Origin: an uncultured Nitrospiraceae bacterium
GTDB taxonomy: Bacteria > Nitrospirota > Thermodesulfovibrionia > Thermodesulfovibrionales > Dissulfurispiraceae
Direction: 5' to 3'
DNA length: 16,895 nucleotides
Assembly: GCA_947085205.1 (NCBI GenBank)
Contig: CAMTVO010000046.1
Coordinates: 1 to 16,895 of the forward strand
Position 1 is the stretch's first letter; every line of letters starts with the position of its first letter. The translations under genes and the position numbers were made by a program. Shown piece after piece: positions 7,233-16,895 of this stretch. The notes beneath the pieces were generated by a model. That model searched no databases and was not told the DNA's origin. It saw only the letters and a list, made by a program, of their open reading frames with translations.

Positions 7233-7286
7233 TTAAGGCTGAGGCTGAGGTTAAAGCGAAGATTTTCTTAACCTAAACCTTAACCT
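7233..7286. repeat. Inverted pair of hexamer arrays between mtnA and ispB
   Basis: ttaaggctgaggctgaggttaaag (7233-7256) and cttaacctaaaccttaacct (7267-7286) are imperfect reverse complements. The right arm supplies the mtnA C-terminal VKV and stop. Confidence 0.7.
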
Positions 7287-8334
7287 GATACTCATCAAGA
7301 TTAACATCTTTCTTTGCCAATTTTCTAATGTCTTTCGGCCTGAATGCGCCCTTTTCAGTGATAATTGCCGTCACATATTTTGCCGGCGTAACATCAAATG
7401 CCAAGTTTATTACTTTTACCCCTTCAGGCGCAACCCTATGCCCCCAGATTGTTGTTACCTCTTCAGGATGGCGCTCTTCGATGGGGATAAGCTCTCCTGA
7501 GTTCATGCTGAAATCTATACTGCTTGTCGGTGCTGCAACATAAAAGGGTATGCCGTGCTCTTTGCACAGCACAGCAACAGTATATGTCCCTATCTTATTT
7601 GCCACATCCCCATTCCTTGTTGTCCTGTCTGTTCCCACAATTGCGAGGTCTATCATCCCCTTTTTCATCAATGCGCCTGCTGTATTGTCCGTTATCAATG
7701 TAACCGGAACTCCTGCCTGCATCAGCTCCCATGCGGTAAGCCTCGCTCCCTGAAGCACCGGCCTGGTCTCGTCTGCTATTACTTGTATTTTCTTGCCCTG
7801 TTCTATTGCGACAAATATCGGGGCTGTTGCCGTGCCGTATCCGCCTGTTGCAAGACTTCCTGCATTGCAGTGAGTGAGAACTGTATCGCCGTCTTTTATA
7901 AACTGCGCTCCCCACCTTCCTATTGCCTTATTAACTTCAATGTCTTCCTCATGTATTTTTTTTGCCTCTTCAATGAGAAGTTCCTTTAACCGATTAACCG
8001 ATTCACCCCTTCTCTCTTTCAAAAGCCTTCTTATCCTCTCAACAGCCCATTTTATATTTACTGCCGTAGGCCTTGTTGAAAGCATGACATCAAATATGGT
8101 CTCTATGCCTTTTATGAAGTCCCTGTAATTCTTTGCCGTTATATCCTGTGCGCCGAGAGCTATCCCCATCGCCGCTGCTATGCCGATTGCAGGCGCGCCT
8201 CTTATCCAGAGTTTTTTTATGCCCTCGGCAATGATATGATAATCAGCGCACTCAATGAACTTCACTTCCACAGGAAGCCTGCTCTGGTTAAGCATCATAA
8301 CTTTCCCGTCTTTCCACTCTATTGCTTTTACCAT
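7273..8334 (-). CDS. mtnA: S-methyl-5-thioribose-1-phosphate isomerase
   Basis: IRGAPAIG, TRPTAVN, LTHCNAGSLATGGYGTA, ETRPVLQGARLTAWEL, GDVANKIGTY, FDVTP. Start placed at ATG 8334 (GGAG 7 nt upstream). Confidence 0.97.
   Translation of the reverse strand: MVKAIEWKDGKVMMLNQSRLPVEVKFIECADYHIIAEGIKKLWIRGAPAIGIAAAMGIALGAQDITAKNYRDFIKGIETIFDVMLSTRPTAVNIKWAVERIRRLLKERRGESVNRLKELLIEEAKKIHEEDIEVNKAIGRWGAQFIKDGDTVLTHCNAGSLATGGYGTATAPIFVAIEQGKKIQVIADETRPVLQGARLTAWELMQAGVPVTLITDNTAGALMKKGMIDLAIVGTDRTTRNGDVANKIGTYTVAVLCKEHGIPFYVAAPTSSIDFSMNSGELIPIEERHPEEVTTIWGHRVAPEGVKVINLAFDVTPAKYVTAIITEKGAFRPKDIRKLAKKDVNLDEYQVKV
8309..8328. repeat. Left 20-bp direct repeat of the defence island (within mtnA 5' end)
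   Basis: tctttccactctattgcttt, identical to 16335-16354. Confidence 0.9.
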
Positions 8335-8425
8335 TAAAATCTCCATGAATTCATCATATTAAAACCGTCCTGTCTTTAATGAAAATAATATATATTTCTA
8401 TTTTAACTAATTCTTAATGTTTTAT

Positions 8426-8462
8426 CCTTCCAACCTCGCCTCAAGCTCTGATTTGAAATCCC
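8426..8462. repeat. 37-bp direct repeat, copy 1 (duplicate of res 3' end)
   Basis: ccttccaacctcgcctcaagctctgatttgaaatccc, identical to 10848-10884. Confidence 0.95.
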
Positions 8463-8467
8463 GAAGG

Positions 8468-8592
8468 AATTTCCGAGACAGCGTTTCGGAAATTCCAGAC
8501 ACTGTCTGGGAAATTGGAGTCAATTCTGCACGCAGTGTGTGCATTTTCTTTTGGATTTTTTCTGGCAATTCTGCACACGGTGTGTGCAGAAT
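8468..8592. repeat. Four tandem palindromes with 3-nt centres inside the DUF1016 fragment
   Basis: AATTTCCGAGAC-AGC-GTTTCGGAAATT (8468-8494), CCAGAC-ACT-GTCTGG (8495-8509), TGCACGC-AGT-GTGTGCA (8527-8543), ATTCTGCACAC-GGT-GTGTGCAGAAT (8568-8592). Confidence 0.88.
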
Positions 8593-8939
8593 CTCTTTAT
8601 AAGTAATATAGAACTGCCTCATATGCCAAAGATTTCTCTCTGTAAATCCCTTGCCAAATTGTGGGGTTAAGTCAGCCGATATCTTTTTAAGTAACGCCTC
8701 TCCATATTCTGCCCTTTCCTTACCCTTCTGCTCAAACTCCACAATCTCTCTGCCAATCTCATAATATGCAAGCACCTGCGACTTGTTGATCTGCCGAACA
8801 GCAGTTGCCCTTGCAGAATGGATAATTTCAGCAAGGCGTTTAAACAGCGTGCTATATTTGCTGTGTTTTATTTTTCCGGTCAAAACTTTTCTCCTGTGTC
8901 CGTCATCTCTCTCCCCTTATCCTGTAATCTTGCCTCAAC

Positions 8940-8987
8940 ATCCGAGCCGTGAGTTCAGGATAGGGTTGTCAACGGCAAGGGACATTA
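8940..8987 (-). repeat. 48-bp cassette-boundary repeat A (mini-ORF MSLAVDNPILNSRLGC*, 8935-8985)
   Basis: 41/48 identical to 9664-9711; preceded by RBS-like AAGGAAAGG. Confidence 0.88.
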
Positions 8988-8997
8988 GCCTTTCCTT

Positions 8998-9402
8998 CTA
9001 CGAGTATCTCTTTAAAAATTCATCAACAGTGATGATTTCAATTCCACTGTAGGTTTTCAGCTTCAGAAGATGGGAATCACCGCTCACAATAAGCCTTGCA
9101 TTTCCGTCTATCGCAAGATTTATAAATACATTGTCCGAAGGGTCATCATTTACAGGATGCTCTCTTGAAGAGACATCAATATTCTTTCCTAAACTTTCGA
9201 GGTCTAAAACGACATGGTATATCTCATCAGCATCGAGTCCGAACTTCTTTGATAAAACCCTGACAAGTTCATCCTTTGTCTCTTTGCAGATCAACAGCCT
9301 TAACTTGGCAGACTTTATGATCCGCAATGCTTGACGGGGTTTTCCCTTCCACAAATATCCCAATATAAGGACATTTGTGTCGAATACAATTGTTTCTTTC
9401 AC
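8998..9402 (-). CDS. PIN-domain toxin (PIN_3 / VapC-like)
   Basis: IVFDTNVLI, DDPSDNVFINLA, IVSGDSHLLKL; GTGA overlap with the upstream small gene. Confidence 0.92.
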   Translation of the reverse strand: MKETIVFDTNVLILGYLWKGKPRQALRIIKSAKLRLLICKETKDELVRVLSKKFGLDADEIYHVVLDLESLGKNIDVSSREHPVNDDPSDNVFINLAIDGNARLIVSGDSHLLKLKTYSGIEIITVDEFLKRYS

Positions 9403-9623
9403 TTGCTCTTTCTGACCTCACTCACTATCTTCTCGACTTCCTTCAAACTCATTGGTGCAATCTTTTTCCTTTTGGCCACCTCATCCATATAGGAAAAGAT
9501 ATCTCTTTCCTCTTTGGCTGGAAACACGATAACCTCAACCTTGCTTCCGGGTTTAAAAGGGAGGGGTTTAACGGTAACGCTTTTATCCCTCTCAACCTCT
9601 ATAAGTTTCTTTATTGCCTTCAT
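9399..9623 (-). CDS. Probable antitoxin of the PIN toxin
   Basis: 74 aa, RBS AAAGGAGG, 4-nt overlap with the PIN gene, LPFKPGSKVEVIV beta motif and EVEKIVSEVRK tail. Function inferred from position. Confidence 0.75.
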   Translation of the reverse strand: MKAIKKLIEVERDKSVTVKPLPFKPGSKVEVIVFPAKEERDIFSYMDEVAKRKKIAPMSLKEVEKIVSEVRKSK

Positions 9624-9663
9624 CTTTGGCCTCCTTTAATTTCTCTGTTTATATATTACCAGT

Positions 9664-9711
9664 ATCTAAGCCGTGATTTCAGGATTGGGTCATCAACGGC
9701 AAGTGACATTA
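9664..9711 (-). repeat. 48-bp cassette-boundary repeat B (mini-ORF MSLAVDDPILKSRLRYW*, 9656-9709)
   Basis: 41/48 identical to 8940-8987; its ATG overlaps the DUF86 stop (TAATG). Confidence 0.88.
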
Positions 9712-10050
9712 TTTGACCATACCCTTCAGTATTTCTTGAATAACCGGTTTAACCTGTGGAATAACATCTTTGATTGTATGCCATACGAGATCATATTTAA
9801 TACCGAAGTAAAAGTGGATTAATCTGTCCCTCATGCCTGCCATTTCTTTCCATGGAACTTGAGGATATTTATTTCTTATCGTTTCCGGCAATCCTTTTGC
9901 GGCTTCACCAATGATTTCAAACTTCCTGATAACAGCGCTTGATACCATATCGTTTTTCTGAAAGTCTTCAAAGTCCATGTTTTCAACAAACTTTTCAATG
10001 GCCTGCATTGCCTCTAAAATATCCTTTAGATAAAGGGCATAATCTCTCAT
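9709..10050 (-). CDS. hepT: DUF86 / HepT-like HEPN ribonuclease toxin
   Basis: YLKDILEA, AVIRKFEIIGEA, PWKEMAGMRDRLIHFYFG (RX4HXY motif). Confidence 0.93.
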   Translation of the reverse strand: MRDYALYLKDILEAMQAIEKFVENMDFEDFQKNDMVSSAVIRKFEIIGEAAKGLPETIRNKYPQVPWKEMAGMRDRLIHFYFGIKYDLVWHTIKDVIPQVKPVIQEILKGMVK

Positions 10051-10355
10051 AAATATGCCGCCTCTTTTAATATGCTGTCTTTAATTTCCATTCTGAGAGC
10101 GCTTTCAGGGACAACATCAACACTGCAACTCAATTTCTCCTCAAGGAATAAAGAGAGTCCTGTAAAATCTAAAAGGTTGGCTCCCTCATCGAATTCTACC
10201 AATACATCAATATCGCTCCCTTCTTTTTGCTCGCCTTTTACATAAGAGCCGAAAATGCCCTTTATCTCAGCCCTGTATTTCTGCCTGACCTCTGCTTTAA
10301 GTCCGTTTAGAACCTGAAGAATCTCGGATGCAGACATTGCCTTTACATCACTCAT
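10047..10355 (-). CDS. mntA: Minimal nucleotidyltransferase antitoxin (MntA-like)
   Basis: GIFGSYVKGEQKEGSDIDVLVEF (GSX10DXD), VDVV; ATGA overlap with the HEPN gene; RBS AAGGAGG. Confidence 0.93.
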   Translation of the reverse strand: MSDVKAMSASEILQVLNGLKAEVRQKYRAEIKGIFGSYVKGEQKEGSDIDVLVEFDEGANLLDFTGLSLFLEEKLSCSVDVVPESALRMEIKDSILKEAAYL

Positions 10356-10411
10356 TTTAGCCTCCTTAGTGTCGGCTTTATTTATAAATTTTAACCTTTC
10401 CCTTTCATAAT

Positions 10412-10440
10412 CTCAATATCTGAGCCTCTGCACCTTCAGG
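10412..10440 (-). repeat. Degenerate partial copy C of the cassette-boundary repeat
   Basis: ctcaatatctgagcc (10412-10426) matches ctcaacatccgagcc (8934-8948) at 13/15, followed by the shared ttcagg after a 3-nt indel. Confidence 0.55.
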
Positions 10441-10504
10441 TAATATGCATGTGCCCTTTTGATCTCGCCAGACAAAATAAATATACCTGTCCTATTTTTT
10501 ATTC

Positions 10505-10819
10505 TCACAGTGTGTAGCGTTTTTCAATATCTCCATAAATCAGATAAAACTGACGAATTGCTCTTAAGTGAGGTTCGCCCCAACCCTTGCCAAATTGTTT
10601 AGTCAAATCTCCAGAAAGACGCTTGAGCAAAGCCTCGCCATACTCTGCCCGTTCCTTCCCCTTCTGCTCATACTCCACAACCCTCCTTCCAACAAGCCAG
10701 TAAGTAGCCACCAGCGCGGTATTCACATACCGCACCGCTGTTCTGCGTCCCTGATCAATCAGCGATGCAAGGTCTGTGACAAGCGTGGAGTATTTATTGG
10801 TCTTTGTACTCTTTTTCAT
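10505..10819 (-). pseudogene. Truncated DUF1016 (YhcG-like) N-terminal fragment
   Basis: VNTALVATYWLVGRRVVEYEQKGKERAEYG...FGKGW...RQFY; stops abruptly at KRYTL. Confidence 0.82.
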
Positions 10820-10843
10820 TCACTGCCTTTTTCAATCATTTCT

Positions 10844-13354
10844 TCAACCTTCCAACCTCGCCTCAAGCTCTGATTTGAAATCCCTGTAAGTCTTTTCCCT
10901 TAAGGCCTTAAAAAACAAATCATAACTCATTGGGGATAGAAATTTGAAGTAATAATTGTGTTCTTTTTGCAGTCTATTAAGCCTGTTAAAATGTTCTTTT
11001 GCAAACTCAAGTTTTTTCCTGTTTTCATCCCCCGTAACCCCTTCATGTGCCTTGTCATCTTTAATTTCTACTATGAGGATATCATTCTTAACTTTGATAA
11101 AAAAATCAGGGTTAAAACTTCCTTGTTTTGGATGTTCTCCTTTTCTCCATGAATAATCTATTTTATAAAAACCTACATCAAGGGATTTTATCCATGTATC
11201 AATTGCTTTAGCGTTTTCTTCCTTAATCAAGCCCTGTATAAATTTTCTTTCAGGTTTATAGGATGATAAGACCACATTGAGAGGGGTTTTGAAGTTGTAA
11301 CGATTCTCGATCTTGACAATATCAATAAGTTCGCCATCCTCTTTCATTTCAACCAGTTCATTCAAGAGTTTTCTATCTCCTTCCTCTCCTGATAAGAGGG
11401 AGTAATCGTTCCAAAATACCGTGTTATCACCCCGTAAAGCTCTTATACCTACACTGTTCTTATTCATATTTTCAGTGCTGATTTTATAGGGTTCTTTCGA
11501 TTTTGGCACTATCCTTGGAAATGTGCTACTTTTCCTTTTAATAACACCAAAAGCCTGTAATGTTTTCTGTCTATTTTCTTCACTAATCATACCTGTCTTA
11601 TCGTTTACTTCTTGTAAAGATCGCAGGATAATCTTGGTAATTTTTTCTTTGGGCCATTCCCTGCAATAGTTAGTCCCTGCATCCTGATCAAAAATATATA
11701 GTCTATTAAAAATGTCGTTAGCCACCTCTTTAACTGGATACATTGTATGTGCAATGAAATATTCTTTTTTCTCTTTTATACCAGTTATCGCCATCTCATA
11801 CTCTGTCTCTTCCGAGATAATCTCAGCCTGACTGGAATAAGTAATATATCCTTTTTTAAGCAGTTCAAATTCACCTTCTTTCGGATATTCCTTGCTTTCT
11901 TCTATTATCTTTTCATAATCAATTTGGTACAGGTCAAAGTTATAATTCTCTTTCTTTTTTACTGGATACGATGATATTCGTTTCTCAATTTCCAAAACCT
12001 CATCTACCAGATGCTTAATACTATTTGACCATTTATCGTGATTGAAGACTGTAACAACCGGCTGTTCACCTTTATATATTTCCGGTATCCTTAAACCCCT
12101 TCCCAAAACCTGCGCAATAAGAAGTTTTGAATTAAATGCTCTCTCCTCGTGTGGGACAATCTGAAATACATTTTTAACATCCCAGCCTTCTGAAAGCATA
12201 CTGACTGAGGTAATCCACTCAACAGGATTATCCTTGTCATCAACTCTTTGTAATATCGGGATATTATTCTTGTGTTCATTGGCAGAAGTAACAATTAAAA
12301 CCTTCTCTGCTGCTTTATCTTTACTGATTTTTTCCTTTTTGGAAAGAAATGCAATTAGTTTATCAGTTAGCCGTTTGCATGCCGCAATGTTTTTTGTGAC
12401 CAAGATAGTGATAGGTTTTACCTTCCGGTATTTTACTTTCTTGTTCTCAATATGATTTTCGTAAATTTTCTGAAACTTCTCGTTTTCATTTCCTGATGAG
12501 TCCTCTGCAACATAACGGATGGATTTAACAAATTTTGTTTCTATGGAATCCCTCAGAGAAAAGCGATGAATGACATCGGTGAAATAATCATCGCCAATAT
12601 AACAGGTGCCTGAAAGATTAACGATATATTTAAAACCATATTTTGGGTCAAGCAAGAACTCCTTCCATTTTTTAAGCGCTGTATCAGATGGACTCATCAA
12701 ATGATGGGCTTCATCGTTTAATACCAGTGTCTGTTCGCCTTTTCCCGCAAGGCTGTCTTCAATAGCGGATTTAGTATTAATGTAAGTGGCATGGATGTTT
12801 TCAATGCAAATATCTTCCTTTTGAATAGTATTTGATGCATTGATAATGCGAGGATTGATTATCTTAGAATCAGATGGCAGGAGGTCTTTTAGTGTTCTGT
12901 CAGAAGAAAGACCTCGAAACTTTTCTGTTAAACCTGTTTCAATAGTATTTGAAGGGCAAAGAACTAAAACTCTATTAATCGCTCCTTCAGCAAGCATGAT
13001 GCGTGCGATGCCATACATTACATAACTTTTTCCAGTAGCTGTTGCATGCTCAAGAGAACAGGAAAGTTTATCTGGCAATTGCAGGTAACTTACAAAGTCA
13101 TCAAAAGATGAATATTTTTCCTGAAGTTTTGGATTCCTGTGATAATTTTCCTCTGCCAAGTCTTTGAGGTTTTTGTATTCACCGCCCAAAAAGTATCGCA
13201 GTGTCTCTCTGATTGCCTCTTTCTGATATTCCCTGTCACCGCAGAGGGCATCCAGAAAAGGCTCGTATTTGTTTGGCTCAAATTTGTTAGGATTGTAATT
13301 AGGGGATACTTTGAGGACTAAGTCTTTATTTTGAAAAGTCTGGCGGTCAAGCAT
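10844..13354 (-). CDS. res: Type III-like restriction endonuclease subunit (SF2 helicase plus PD-(D/E)XK nuclease)
   Basis: REYQKEAI, ATATGKS, DEAH, MLSEGWDV, QVLGRGLR, FNPDFF...VEIK. Start placed at ATG 13354, just after the upstream stop. Confidence 0.92.
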   Translation of the reverse strand: MLDRQTFQNKDLVLKVSPNYNPNKFEPNKYEPFLDALCGDREYQKEAIRETLRYFLGGEYKNLKDLAEENYHRNPKLQEKYSSFDDFVSYLQLPDKLSCSLEHATATGKSYVMYGIARIMLAEGAINRVLVLCPSNTIETGLTEKFRGLSSDRTLKDLLPSDSKIINPRIINASNTIQKEDICIENIHATYINTKSAIEDSLAGKGEQTLVLNDEAHHLMSPSDTALKKWKEFLLDPKYGFKYIVNLSGTCYIGDDYFTDVIHRFSLRDSIETKFVKSIRYVAEDSSGNENEKFQKIYENHIENKKVKYRKVKPITILVTKNIAACKRLTDKLIAFLSKKEKISKDKAAEKVLIVTSANEHKNNIPILQRVDDKDNPVEWITSVSMLSEGWDVKNVFQIVPHEERAFNSKLLIAQVLGRGLRIPEIYKGEQPVVTVFNHDKWSNSIKHLVDEVLEIEKRISSYPVKKKENYNFDLYQIDYEKIIEESKEYPKEGEFELLKKGYITYSSQAEIISEETEYEMAITGIKEKKEYFIAHTMYPVKEVANDIFNRLYIFDQDAGTNYCREWPKEKITKIILRSLQEVNDKTGMISEENRQKTLQAFGVIKRKSSTFPRIVPKSKEPYKISTENMNKNSVGIRALRGDNTVFWNDYSLLSGEEGDRKLLNELVEMKEDGELIDIVKIENRYNFKTPLNVVLSSYKPERKFIQGLIKEENAKAIDTWIKSLDVGFYKIDYSWRKGEHPKQGSFNPDFFIKVKNDILIVEIKDDKAHEGVTGDENRKKLEFAKEHFNRLNRLQKEHNYYFKFLSPMSYDLFFKALREKTYRDFKSELEARLEG
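10848..10884. repeat. 37-bp direct repeat, copy 2 (true res 3' end)
   Basis: Identical to 8426-8462. Confidence 0.95.
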
Positions 13355-13356
13355 AA

Positions 13357-14295
13357 CTAACAACTCTCTAAGAAATTCAGTTGGTCTTTATTACAGAAAG
13401 TTAGTATTCGTTCATCATAAAATTGATTCTTTTGTGTAAAAATACTTTTATTTATGATTTCTTTTTTGGCTAATTTGTTTTTAGGAAAAAAAGAAGCGGC
13501 ATATTTTTTATAATAAATGCTCTTAAATTTCCTACCACCCATAATTACTTTAGGAAGGTCGGCATTAACAAGTATCTCAGCAACTTTACACTTTCCCTCA
13601 TGATTTGAGGTATTATCTAACACTTGGCTGATACCACCGATAGTCAGGTCAACATATTGTATTATGTGGCTTTCGTCCTTATACTTTGCTTCGTCATCGT
13701 GATTAGAGTCCACTTCTGTAATTTCTAAGCTCTTGAAAGTAAAAGCAATGGGTTCACCTTGTATAACTGCTTTGAAATTTATTTCTGCAATGGGCTGTGA
13801 GTGGAATTTATCTTGTGGGGTTCTACTTTTTGTATCAGAAAAGATATTTTGTATCACAACTTTTTTAAAGCCAGCATTTTGATTTAGAAAAAACCATTTG
13901 ATTGCCCCATATAATCCTATTTGAAAAAAGCGATTGTAAATCTTAAAATCCTTTGTTTTTGTATTCCAAAGGTCTTTTGCAAGGTTGGTATAATTCACAC
14001 CTAAAAGGTAAAAGTAGGTACTGTTATGTAAAGAGTTACAAAATAGATTAGCCCATCTTATAGCGAGGTCATTCATAGTTCGTGTATCTTTTAAATTAGA
14101 AAAGCGTATCTCTTTTTCCCATGTGCTCGCTGCCCTTTCCTTCTCAAGTGTGTCTATTAGTTGTTTTTTAAACCCAATAGGAACGAATAAGAAACCATGA
14201 TATAGCCATCTCTTTGGAATTTCCCGTTCATCATGGTAAACAAAACATCTAATCTCTTTCGGCAAATTTACATTACCAAAAATATCATGGCTCAT
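13357..14295 (-). CDS. Hypothetical protein, DUF3800-like, between mod and res
   Basis: 312 aa, AT-rich. N-terminal FVYHDE, central FSD and C-terminal DS...IIQYVDL resemble the DUF3800 DE...QxxD pattern. ATGA overlap with mod. Confidence 0.7.
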   Translation of the reverse strand: MSHDIFGNVNLPKEIRCFVYHDEREIPKRWLYHGFLFVPIGFKKQLIDTLEKERAASTWEKEIRFSNLKDTRTMNDLAIRWANLFCNSLHNSTYFYLLGVNYTNLAKDLWNTKTKDFKIYNRFFQIGLYGAIKWFFLNQNAGFKKVVIQNIFSDTKSRTPQDKFHSQPIAEINFKAVIQGEPIAFTFKSLEITEVDSNHDDEAKYKDESHIIQYVDLTIGGISQVLDNTSNHEGKCKVAEILVNADLPKVIMGGRKFKSIYYKKYAASFFPKNKLAKKEIINKSIFTQKNQFYDERILTFCNKDQLNFLESC

Positions 14296-16292
14296 TTTGT
14301 TTTAAAGTCCTTTAATGTCTTCACTTCCCGCTTCTCGTTTCCAAATATATCTATGTAAATCACCATGATCTGCGCTTTGACCTTATCATCTGGAAATCTC
14401 ACTTCATAGCCATTCTTCTTTAAATCTTCGGCATAGAAGACCTCATCTAAATCAAAGACCTCTCCATTAAAATCATAATCAATCATTACCATAGAGAGGG
14501 TTTCAAGATTGGCAAACTCAACCGGCTTGCGGGAAATGACTTTGCTTTCAAACTTCTCAATTTTAATTACACATTCTTTTGTCTTCTGGTTAAGAAGGTC
14601 AGGATTTTTAGGGCTTTCTAAATAATACTTGCACTCAACCTTTGGCACTTGTATAAAATCAAAGCCTACAGCATCAACAGTATCGTTAACATCCATCTCA
14701 CTCACAGGTTGCTTGATTTTTGTAAAACCTCGATTGTGGATTTCTTCTATAATGGAATAAGGAATACGAAGGATAAAGTATTTTGCCTTGCCTTTCCCAA
14801 TGTAATCCTCAAGGAATTGAACAGAAGCAGCAGGAGCTATGATAAAAAATCTTCTTCCAATCTTATCCCCAAGATGTTTATGTAAATCATCAATAAAACC
14901 CCTGTCCATCATAGCATCAGAATATTTCTGATAATTGAAAACCATAACGCTGTCTGCTCCGAGATAACCGTCCAATTCAATTCTTGAAATCTCATATTTC
15001 TCATCTCGGCACTGAAAGAGCTTCAAAGCAAAGTCTCGATACTGCTCCCAATGAAGTTCTTTAATCATCTTGTAGTCATAAAGACCGGCATTGTAGAGGG
15101 TGAAGGGCTTGGGAGGCTTGCCGTATTTCTTCTTTGGATTTTCCAAATCCTTGCTCTCTGCAATGTTCAATAGCCGTTTTTGCATCGTATAGATTGCCAG
15201 CTTTCCACAATCCACACCAATCCACCGCCTGCCAAGTTTTTCAGCAACGGCAAGAGTAGTTCCTGAGCCAGCAAAACAGTCCATCACTATATCACCTTGA
15301 TTGGAGGAGGCTTTGATTATGCGACTTAAAAGCGCTTCTGGTTTTTGGGTTGGATAACCGATTCGTTCCTCTGCGGTACCTTGAACAAAAGGAATCTCAA
15401 AAATTTCCGTGGGCTTTCCCTCTTTCATATATGCCTTTCTAACCGTTCCATCATTATCGTAATAAAGTTTATATCGCCTCCCTTCCTTATCCATTTTGTC
15501 ATAGCGACGTATTGCCTTATCATCATATTGGATAAGTGTTGCTTCTTCATTGAAATTATAATTATCTGATTTTGTATAAAAGAAAAGAATATCGTGTTTT
15601 CTCGGAAAGTTTTTTTCTGTGCTTGTTGGCCCAAAGTATTTCCAAATAAGGTCATTTCTAAATTTTGTCTCCCCGAATACCTCATCCATCAGCACCTTCA
15701 CATAATGTGCCTTCTTCCAATCCAAATGCACATAAATACTTCCATCCTCACTCAACAACTCCCGAAGGAAAACTAATCTCTTTCTTAAAAACTCCAGAAA
15801 CCTTGCTCCTGCAATCTTGTCCTGATAAGCCTTTTGGTCTTGACTTCCTCTGAACTCCTGCTTTGTTGCAAAGGGCGGGTCAATATAAATTAGCCTTACC
15901 CCTGGCGTGCCATCAGCATTTTTGAGTTTGCCTTTTTCTTTCATCCGTAAGAGTTCCTTCAACACCTGAAGGTTGTCACCAAAGATGAGCATGTTCGTCC
16001 AGAAATCCCCCTCACCCTTGCCCTCTCCCGCAAGGGGAGAGGGAATTATTCCATTACGAAAAGTCTTGACCTTTTGCAATGGCACAGCCATAGTGTCGGC
16101 AAGAATATCTTCTTCACGCTCTTTATCGGCATAAATCAGTTCATATTCTTTCTTTGTATCAAAAAGGAGGGAATGTTTGAGCTTTCTGAGGTCGCTTATA
16201 AGAGCATCTTTGTAATGCTCAGGCAATGGCTTGCCCTTTTCTAAATAGCTTATGACCTTATCAATATGACTATCAGATAATTCTTTCATCAC
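14292..16292 (-). CDS. mod: Type III-like DNA adenine methyltransferase (beta class, Mod)
   Basis: GDNLQVL, IYIDPPF, YPTQKPEALL, DCFAGSGTT, RRWIGVD, C-terminal IDIFGNE. Start is GTG 16292 or ATG 16289. Confidence 0.94.
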   Translation of the reverse strand: MMKELSDSHIDKVISYLEKGKPLPEHYKDALISDLRKLKHSLLFDTKKEYELIYADKEREEDILADTMAVPLQKVKTFRNGIIPSPLAGEGKGEGDFWTNMLIFGDNLQVLKELLRMKEKGKLKNADGTPGVRLIYIDPPFATKQEFRGSQDQKAYQDKIAGARFLEFLRKRLVFLRELLSEDGSIYVHLDWKKAHYVKVLMDEVFGETKFRNDLIWKYFGPTSTEKNFPRKHDILFFYTKSDNYNFNEEATLIQYDDKAIRRYDKMDKEGRRYKLYYDNDGTVRKAYMKEGKPTEIFEIPFVQGTAEERIGYPTQKPEALLSRIIKASSNQGDIVMDCFAGSGTTLAVAEKLGRRWIGVDCGKLAIYTMQKRLLNIAESKDLENPKKKYGKPPKPFTLYNAGLYDYKMIKELHWEQYRDFALKLFQCRDEKYEISRIELDGYLGADSVMVFNYQKYSDAMMDRGFIDDLHKHLGDKIGRRFFIIAPAASVQFLEDYIGKGKAKYFILRIPYSIIEEIHNRGFTKIKQPVSEMDVNDTVDAVGFDFIQVPKVECKYYLESPKNPDLLNQKTKECVIKIEKFESKVISRKPVEFANLETLSMVMIDYDFNGEVFDLDEVFYAEDLKKNGYEVRFPDDKVKAQIMVIYIDIFGNEKREVKTLKDFKTK
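16007..16043. repeat. Small REP-like palindromic element in frame within mod
   Basis: ccccctcacccttg-ccctctccc-gcaag-gggagaggg has a perfect 9-bp stem, is GC-rich in an AT-rich gene, and encodes PSPLAGEGKGEG. Confidence 0.85.
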
Positions 16293-16334
16293 ACCTTTTT
16301 AAAAATAGCCGAAAACCAAACTCTAAACTTCTCA

Positions 16335-16354
16335 TCTTTCCACTCTATTGCTTT
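16335..16354. repeat. Right 20-bp direct repeat of the island; dead mtnA 5' remnant
   Basis: Minus strand after the mgtE stop: GGAG RBS then ATA-ATT-AAA-GCA-ATA-GAG-TGG-AAA-GAT (IIKAIEWKD), versus mtnA MVKAIEWKD. Confidence 0.9.
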
Positions 16355-16370
16355 AATTATATGGCTCTCC

Positions 16371-16895
16371 TCATATCAGGTATCTCATAAATATACTTGC
16401 CACTGTAAAATATATTGTTAATCCGAGTATATCATTGAACACTGTTACAAAGGGGCCTGCGGTAATCGCAGGGTCAATCCCGACTTTGTCTGCTATCGTT
16501 GGCGTCAGTATTGCGAGGATTGTGGAACTGCTGATTGCGAAAAACATTGAAACCCCGACAACCACGCCGAGCATCGGCATCCCTTTGAGGGCGCTTGCTG
16601 CTGCTGCAATAGCAATCCCTGTTATGCCTGCGATCATCAGTCCGGCAAGCAGTTCCTTTCCCACATACCTCCAGTAATTATTAATTGAATTAAGCCCTAT
16701 GTTACGGACCATGGTTGTGGAAACCTGCAGCCCTGCATTGCCTGCCATCCCCATTATTACAGGGACAAACGCTGCAAGCACGACCAGAGTAGTGAGAGTC
16801 TTTTCAAAGTGTCCAACTACAATGCTTGAGATTAGCCCACCGAGAAGACAGAGCAAAAGCCACGGAAGCCTGCTCTTAACTATATCTATTAGACG
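16371..16895 (-). CDS. mgtE: Magnesium transporter MgtE, C-terminal membrane domain (5' part outside the window)
   Basis: SRLPWL, FVPVIMGMAGNAGLQ, GIDPAITAGPFVTVFNDILG; the frame is open to the window edge. Confidence 0.95.
   Translation of the reverse strand, partial: RLIDIVKSRLPWLLLCLLGGLISSIVVGHFEKTLTTLVVLAAFVPVIMGMAGNAGLQVSTTMVRNIGLNSINNYWRYVGKELLAGLMIAGITGIAIAAAASALKGMPMLGVVVGVSMFFAISSSTILAILTPTIADKVGIDPAITAGPFVTVFNDILGLTIYFTVASIFMRYLI

Follow-up and report, generated by a model that had tools for sequence, protein, structure and literature searches.

A composite putative anti-phage island between two copies of the mtnA start in a genome of the Thermodesulfovibrionales

We analysed the whole of a metagenome contig of 16,895 nucleotides (nt; contig C46, here called the window) from a member of the order Thermodesulfovibrionales, in which about 8 kb of predicted anti-phage genes lie between two copies of the start of mtnA: a decayed stub behind mgtE, and the beginning of the live gene. 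The source genome (G000) is metagenome-assembled (65 contigs, 1,885,442 bases, estimated to be 89.7% complete) and belongs to family f1; it was compared with the other 316 genomes of an order-wide set of 317 (codes beginning with G denote genomes, those beginning with L loci or contigs). Two further sources recur below: g96, a genus of a different family (f11) of the same order, and L079, an independent metagenome contig. The island-related genes, from mgtE to mtnA, are all on the minus strand, along which the order is mgtE, mtnA stub, mod, a gene for a protein of 312 amino acids (aa), res, DUF1016a', MNT/HEPN, a 74-aa gene with PIN, DUF1016b' fused to the short segment R', a spacer, mtnA, a polyprenyl synthetase gene and AMMECR1. 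The G+C content is 0.34–0.41 in the island and 0.42–0.48 in the flanks, and the contig end falls inside mgtE. The features at the two edges of the island are:

16371–16895, minus strand: 3' part of mgtE (Pfam MgtE, 4.3e-28; TIGR00400), cut by the contig end
16324–16370, minus strand: mtnA 5' stub, with GGAG at 16370–16367, ATA replacing ATG at 16360–16358 and 12 mtnA-like codons to 16324
16289–16323, minus strand: tail of the stub frame and mod leader; TGA (16291–16289) overlaps the mod ATG (16289–16287) by one base (TGATG)
8421–8462, minus strand: R', the last 42 nt, with the stop, of an earlier L079-type res (40/42 identical to the end of the resident res, 41/42 to the end of the L079 res)
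8335–8420, minus strand: AT-rich 86-nt spacer; its GGAG precedes the ATG of live mtnA
7273–8334, minus strand: live, full-length mtnA (TIGR00512, 432 bits against a cutoff of 279)

An exact 20-mer (AAAGCAATAGAGTGGAAAGA on the minus strand) is present at 8309–8328 and 16335–16354. It had two matches in the window at up to three mismatches (two or more matches were obtained in 0 of 200 shuffles) and two in the whole assembly at up to two mismatches, both within the window, and is therefore not a dispersed repeat. Ungapped extension lengthens the repeat to 31 nt at 87% identity (8298–8328 and 16324–16354), with a copy spacing of 8,026 nt. Read in frame it covers 37 nt, of which 30 are identical, with mismatches at positions 3, 4, 6, 27, 29, 33 and 34; all seven lie outside the 20-nt core (P = 0.015 for a run of at least 20 given 7 mismatches in 37). 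The copy behind mgtE (16360–16324), 3' of the mgtE stop (TGA, 16373–16371) and the GGAG, reads ATA ATT AAA GCA and onwards, that is, IIKAIEWKDEKF, where live mtnA has MVKAIEWKDGKV, and its frame runs for 23 codons from the ATA. A preliminary description of this DNA had reported the repeat at these coordinates and a copy after mgtE that kept its own GGAG and had a start decayed to ATA; both are read directly in the sequence, and the objection that the 20-mer might be a common dispersed repeat falls with the genome-wide count. A degenerate pattern for the mtnA start, which decayed copies would escape, had matches in 47 of the 317 genomes and two copies in G000 only.

The stub stands where mtnA itself stands in related genomes. 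The mgtE end of the window was matched by 14 of the other 316 genomes, and in at least 10 of these (G021, G020, G055, G007, G011, G051, G056, G023, G259 and G270) mtnA lies within 165 nt on the same strand; in G241 it is about 600 nt from mgtE, and for G053, G057 and G085 its position was not listed. In five of the 14 the DNA alignment continues past the mgtE stop through the stub and ends at window positions 16335–16324, where the stub ends, so the stub is a real mtnA start in its native place. The nearest relative at the locus, G021, has mgtE directly followed by mtnA. Seen from mtnA, across 29 loci of relatives, mgtE ends 10–30 nt before the gene in four (G021, G011, G007 and G023), a Nramp-type transporter gene lies upstream in about 17 (judged by shared C-terminal sequence, with Pfam Nramp confirmed for the G237 protein only), and the contig ends 141–669 nt upstream in another four. 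These data support the ancestral mgtE–mtnA order that had been proposed, the objection that the two genes are never adjacent fails, and relatives show both empty junctions and other cargo at the mtnA start. The intervening sequence varies: G270 has a 15-nt spacer, and in G259 (contig C7, L111, 6617–6782) the 165-nt mgtE–mtnA spacer contains a tandem GTGCAAATCTGTGCAAATCTGTG motif.

Defence cargo varies between relatives at the mtnA start, which is a hotspot of recombination. In G237 the order is Nramp, methyltransferase, DpnII-like restriction endonuclease, methyltransferase and mtnA, with a repeat of about 9 nt (AGATTTRAT) at both joins, and in G246 the same methylase and proximal sequence adjoin mtnA. 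The G036 locus runs from mod fragments through two unknown genes and an AIPR gene to a split DUF1016 gene that adjoins mtnA. L079 carries the end of mod, AbiEi, AbiEii, res, the same spacer as the window and mtnA (91% aa identity). In G241, mgtE is followed by a 170-nt Nramp 3' remnant that extends as far as the opening two bases of the former start codon; next come about 410 nt that include the tail of a G237-type island, and finally mtnA. A Nramp-type C terminus directly precedes mtnA in 7 of 11 loci examined, with the Nramp stop overlapping the mtnA ATG (TAATG), and an insert that keeps both genes working must therefore duplicate or replace the overlap; this may explain the gene-end repeats that bracket islands here. 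At empty sites (L085, L088, L090 and other g96 loci; L097, 8270–8285), the mtnA ribosome-binding site lies inside the Nramp end.

Foreign-type sequence continues from the island into both flanking genes. On the mtnA side, sliding comparison, informative sites and block counts agree on a mosaic, described here in nt from the mtnA start. The first block (nt 1–565; 8334–7770) is identical to L079 at 540 of 565 positions (96%), is 92–93% identical to five g96 species and 70–74% identical to six own-family genomes, with informative sites (g96:own family) at 60:0. The next (nt 566–930; 7769–7405) shows 72–74% identity to L079 and g96 versus 80–86% to the own family (2:43). From nt 931 to 1255 (the mtnA end, the following spacer and the start of the next gene, to 7080) identity is 81–86% to g96 versus 56–61% to the own family (46:5), and from nt 1256 to 2300 it is 65–67% versus 70–78% (17:105). 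An order-wide DNA search returned six g96 genomes at 92–94% and f1 genomes at 68–75%; the 11 best genomes (81–94%) match from query position 127–139, with the ATG at 137, and lack the spacer. On the other side, the last approximately 350 nt of mgtE are 96–98% identical to G241 (g96) versus 70–81% to G021 in 100-column windows, and the middle part of the gene together with this end is 84–98% identical to G241 and G259 versus 66–82% to G021, which is the nearest genome to the first third. The g96-like sequence thus extends 565–590 nt into mtnA and about 350 nt into mgtE. That a foreign-type block ends inside both flanking genes points to entry by homologous recombination far out in the flanks, and with foreign flanks the stub itself may have formed in a donor lineage. 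The claim of an import rests on this block analysis and not on a gene tree.

Within the island, further remnants of genes were found in addition to the mtnA stub. The interior features are:

14292–16292, minus strand: mod, predicted type III DNA methyltransferase (Pfam N6_N4_Mtase, 2.3e-51; PADLOC models MTase_III and MTase_II)
13357–14295, minus strand: 312-aa gene, no known family, predicted RNase H-like fold (AlphaFold2 model, mean pLDDT (a per-residue model score) 89.9)
10844–13363, minus strand: res, predicted type III helicase-nuclease subunit (Pfam ResIII, 1.7e-15; PADLOC REase_III, 3.3e-10, a weak match)
10843–10884, minus strand: R, the last 42 nt of res, repeat copy of R'
10505–10819, minus strand: DUF1016a', stub of a YhcG/DUF1016 nuclease gene with 104 N-terminal codons (Pfam DUF1016_N, 2.5e-23)
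10047–10355 (MNT) and 9709–10050 (HEPN), minus strand: predicted MNT/HEPN (HepT) toxin–antitoxin pair (Pfam NTP_transf_2, 3.3e-14; HepT-like, 7.9e-30)
9664–9711 (before the PIN pair) and 8940–8987 (truncated second copy), minus strand: 48-nt element, 85% identity between copies, two copies in the genome
9399–9623, minus strand: 74-aa gene, no family, likely antitoxin
8998–9402, minus strand: predicted PIN toxin (Pfam PIN_3, 1.2e-15; TIGR00305)
8463–8883, minus strand: DUF1016b', a second N-terminal stub, fused in frame to R' (Pfam DUF1016_N, 9.3e-29)

The resident res and the L079 res share 1949 of 2523 nt (77%), and R', with 41 of 42 positions identical to the L079 gene end, is therefore the stub of an earlier L079-type res; R' and the spacer together are identical to L079 in 119 of 128 alignment columns (93%). 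The 2.4 kb between R and R' form a nested toxin–antitoxin block that also holds both DUF1016 stubs. These agree at only 55 of 98 residues (56%) and so represent two different alleles rather than one duplication; DUF1016a' is 70.5% identical to the G036 protein over residues 1–95, and no YhcG_C part was found in the window frames. In total five stubs stand in a row. No homology was evident at the DUF1016b'/R' and stub/mod-leader joins, whose donor sequences are not known.

On balance, and with moderate confidence, we favour the explanation that the 8.0 kb between the two mtnA-start copies are a composite anti-phage island without a recognisable recombinase, likely imported from g96 (f11) DNA by homologous recombination together with the last approximately 350 nt of mgtE and the first approximately 565–590 nt of mtnA. 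Host recombination between divergent versions of the island would have assembled it in steps. In every step one end would be joined through homology and the other by a short-homology or illegitimate join, and a stub of the displaced gene would remain: the 37-nt mtnA start, the two DUF1016 N termini, the truncated cassette element and the last 42 nt of the earlier res. The exact 20-nt core is then likely to be the place of a short homologous crossover or conversion and unlikely to be a recombinase site. Homology-facilitated illegitimate recombination is a mechanism put forward for serial displacement that leaves orphan genes (PMC5361080), and a single transformation event can leave several donor tracts that are not contiguous (PMC13344027), as described in the available parts of these two reports. 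The preliminary description had a single island entering by recombination in the first mtnA codons and supplying a replacement start. Its stub and island-side start are real, but the first approximately 565–590 nt of mtnA and about 350 nt of mgtE are foreign as well, and at least three nested events take the place of the single insertion.

The search for a recombinase agreed with the earlier statement that none is encoded. Neither the 10 main frames of the island nor 56 further stop-to-stop frames of at least 45 aa on both strands (66 frames in total) matched any recombinase, integrase or transposase family, and NCBIfam, PADLOC and PHROGs returned no recombinase. The 10 kb upstream of mgtE, on contig C30, consist of housekeeping genes only (SelA, aminotransferase, serA-like, purA, ComF-like and GGDEF genes), and neither an integrase nor a transposase was found in the related islands of G036, L079, G237 and G241, to the extent that these are visible.

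The cargo downstream of the stub begins with mod (a beta-class N6/N4 methyltransferase, by its domains) followed by res (a superfamily 2 helicase), a composition that would suit a type III restriction–modification system; the predicted enzyme would methylate its own DNA and cut unmodified incoming DNA. The two genes do not form a two-gene operon, the 312-aa gene standing between them with overlapping stops and starts. Identity to G272 is 76–79% (aa) for mod and 83% for res, and the window res is 81% identical to that of L079. Because nothing separates mod from res in G272 (76% and 83% aa identity), the 312-aa gene is an extra in a variable slot. This slot is empty in G272 (L064, 2197–2200), holds AbiEi/AbiEii in L079 (181–2355) and holds the RNase H-fold gene here. 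Sequence downstream of res in five other contexts (L064–L068: G272, G152, G312, G198 and G259) is unrelated to the window spacer, and the module therefore brings no mtnA-like end: copies elsewhere end at the res stop, and the upstream leaders that were read are unrelated to the stub. The mod leader TTTTTA.AAGGT also occurs in the G312 copy of mod. Deletion derivatives of the module, in unrelated contexts, are present in G152 (C39, L065), G312 (C109, L066) and G198 (C67, L067), each joining the first 60–101 mod codons to a res tail (from residue 208, 733 or 737). A plasmid scan with the mod-to-res sequence gave only weak methylase and helicase matches, covering at most 9% of the query.

The 312-aa gene had no match in Pfam, NCBIfam, PADLOC or PHROGs and no sequence match to solved structures. 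As far as names were shown, the 64 other proteins matched were listed as 'hypothetical protein' or without a name, and the listing gave no Pfam domains for them; H21, D22, E23, R24, D216 and D227 are among the invariant residues. Structural comparison of the model placed it closest to RNase H2 (Z 9.4) and RNase H3 (Z 8.9), followed by Argonaute PIWI folds (Z 6.5–7.5) and retroviral integrase cores (Z about 6). The protein is likely a nuclease accessory, judging from this predicted fold. A hidden transposase was also considered for this gene, the sole remaining recombinase candidate at the island; such a role in movement is possible but unsupported, and the RNase H-like fold is nearest RNase H2/H3. 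Three distant homologs occur in the order, all in unrelated contexts.

No terminator-like site was found on the minus strand between mgtE and mod or before mtnA, and no consensus promoter on the minus strand in the 86-nt spacer. Read-through into mod from mgtE transcription is plausible on the basis of this arrangement and would likely be how mod is expressed, and translation of mtnA would start at the ATG on the island side, with the GGAG found there. The two predicted toxin–antitoxin pairs may add abortive or stabilising functions.

Several observations weigh against a stepwise, imported island. The mismatch-free core fits a crossover within the core better than a blunt illegitimate join at the stub end; the exact core was found in 2 of 41 relatives, both g96, and the live copy is likewise the g96 allele. 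The left junction, between mgtE and mod, has never been seen in a donor: L079 begins inside mod and the G036 contig ends inside mod. When the junction was sought in G036 there was no mgtE match, and the sole extra 20-mer-like match lay inside an unrelated regulator gene; an exact 28-mer across the mgtE stop had no match in a scan of metagenome contigs, and the 20-mer none in a scan of viral contigs. The block at nt 931–1255 is only 81–86% g96-like, so that more than one import or donor is possible. A whole-protein MtnA tree groups G000 with G036 and G034, and the approximately unbiased (AU) test did not reject an alternative in which the six rows from outside the family form a group that excludes G000 (p = 0.305). 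Such behaviour would be expected of a mosaic gene, and we do not count the tree as support. Transfer of the whole of mtnA was considered and set aside, because the same test does not reject vertical descent and only parts of the gene are foreign by block analysis. Finally, the sequence is metagenome-assembled, and at the contig end window positions 16705–16895 overlap the last 191 nt of contig C30 (L110) and differ from them at 4 positions. The source thus holds more than one strain, and the assembly break in mgtE is probably due to strain variation at the locus.

The exact core would also be accounted for if the island were a self-carried unit that brings its own 37-nt mtnA start and, as replacements, a spacer, a ribosome-binding site and an ATG, enters by a single Campbell-type crossover in the 20-nt core through host RecA or a recombinase acting in trans, and is excised by recombination between the two copies. 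We regard this as unlikely, although several observations favour it: the core is exact and its arms diverged, the core is the g96 allele and the stub arms come no closer than 5 mismatches in 17 to any known allele, the second pair R/R' (40/42) inside the island has the same geometry at the res 3' end, and the spacer and start are common to L079 at 93%. A crossover in the core does not, however, explain the foreign 565–590 nt of mtnA and approximately 350 nt of mgtE, so a second step of flank recombination would be needed anyway. Nor do the mod–res copies in the five other contexts carry the spacer or a stub-like leader; two mtnA-start copies occur in 1 of 317 genomes only; and the G237 island at the same site has only its approximately 9-nt repeat, with breakpoints that differ in G237 and G241. 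Such a unit would recall the restriction–modification 'insertion with long target duplication', in which R (restriction) and M (modification) genes lie in an insert of less than 20 kb with no mobility gene and a duplication of more than 30 bp (Furuta, Abe and Kobayashi 2010, PMC2853133). As far as the available part of that paper describes the class, the likeness includes both R (ResIII/REase_III) and M (N6_N4_Mtase) genes in the insert, an 8,026-nt copy spacing with no mobility gene in the 66 frames, a duplication (31 nt ungapped, 37 nt in frame) barely above 30 bp, and a unique target overlapping a gene end, single-copy at empty sites in five genomes. The island differs from the class in its copies (30/37 identical versus 44/46 in the published cases described there, with all differences outside the 20-nt core), its imported mosaic flanks and stacked events, and a stub from a 5' gene end, for which the insert must supply a new start region. 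More doubtful still is an elaboration in which a recombinase-free, self-targeting unit would use the 37 nt as an mtnA decoy for a RecA crossover in the core, and the TGATG overlap would let mgtE transcription and weak ATA/ATT initiation set methylase levels.

It is very improbable that C46 is a chimera assembled from g96-like and own-family populations sharing the sample. The metagenomic source, its 89.7% completeness, the contig break in mgtE and the strain-level mismatches in the C30 overlap all invite the suspicion, but a chimera would have to switch at least three times on the mtnA side and more often on the mgtE side. At the second switch the opposing informative sites are 2 nt apart (positions 931 and 933), leaving no shared long word for an assembler to jump on. 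Moreover, the g96-like blocks are 92–98% identical to every reference and never 100%, and the junction of res stub, spacer and mtnA is confirmed in the independent contig L079. At the left junction the 20-mer is followed by the mod leader and not by mtnA, so this junction cannot come from a jump at the 20-mer. Slimmer again is the chance that the 20-mer is the att core of a decayed integrative element whose integrase gene has since been deleted. The identical 20-nt core at both ends and the heavy internal decay and nested deletions of the island would suit such an element, but no integrase or transposase fragment is present in the 66 frames or in the visible parts of the G036, L079, G237 and G241 islands, the only sizeable unassigned gene is nearer RNase H2/H3 (Z 8.9–9.4) than integrase cores, and the core has no second copy in the other 316 genomes.

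Known defence hotspots lie between conserved core genes, and the systems found in them change from strain to strain. The mtnA start is similar in that, among related genomes, it can be empty or be occupied by a type II system, by AbiE and a type III system, by AIPR with DUF1016, or by the present island; it differs in that the comparison spans genera and families of one order rather than strains of one species, and in that the transfer appears to have crossed a family boundary. There are also integrase-borne islands and prophages whose attP rebuilds the end of their target gene, such as a tRNA 3' end. The mtnA island shares with these the direct repeats with an identical core at both ends and a target gene kept whole by island-side sequence, and is unlike them in that no integrase was found, the core has no second copy in other genomes and a protein gene is targeted at its 5' end.

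Vibrio cholerae type VI secretion system (T6SS) effector–immunity arrays and Rhs orphan ends offer a further parallel, to the extent covered by the available part of the report (PMC5361080): in the displacement proposed for them, homology is one-sided, displaced genes remain as an orphan row and no dedicated recombinase takes part. The homology-facilitated model has donor sequence continuing into the flanking gene on the homologous side, and this is what mtnA and mgtE contain. The cargo here is restriction–modification and toxin–antitoxin genes, unlike that of the T6SS arrays, and the stubs are short and non-coding rather than working immunity genes. For the V. cholerae arrays, in the same part of the report, as for the mtnA island, the mechanism is deduced from scars only.

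The locus is a clearly resolved case of defence genes moving without a mobility gene, and the row of gene stubs records the order of events. By way of a few hundred bases of flank homology, the whole 8 kb seem to have passed from one family of the Thermodesulfovibrionales to another. The spread of islands by ordinary recombination in flanking genes is an already known route, and the locus opens no new kind of biology. Site-specific integration should not be assumed wherever a short att-like repeat adjoins an island, a point that matters for the automatic calling of islands and integrase sites.

The nested toxin–antitoxin block has some features of its own. NCBIfam MntA and HepT matches for the MNT/HEPN pair were below cutoff, and a search of the window against Rfam, with E values up to 1 allowed, found nothing. 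The 48-nt element, which continues into the leader of the next cassette, also lies between small-gene cassettes in G241 (contig C3, three copies) and after res in G259 (contig C42). Integron attC sites were considered for the 48-nt repeats and rejected, as these fold no better than shuffles (z −1.5 to 0.0). Across these loci an element of approximately 50–80 nt (containing CCAATCCTGAAATCACGGCTCGGATAYTGGTAAGATATA) stands between toxin–antitoxin-like cassettes and leads into the next ribosome-binding site, at 1009, 1501 and 2314 of L113 (G241, C3) and at 1501 of L114 (G259, C42); it looks like a shared cassette leader or promoter. In DUF1016b', a 32-nt segment is repeated 45 nt apart (8521–8552 and 8566–8597; 81% identity), and each copy of this segment, which is an insertion relative to the G036 gene, holds the hairpin TGCACxCxGTGTGTGCA.

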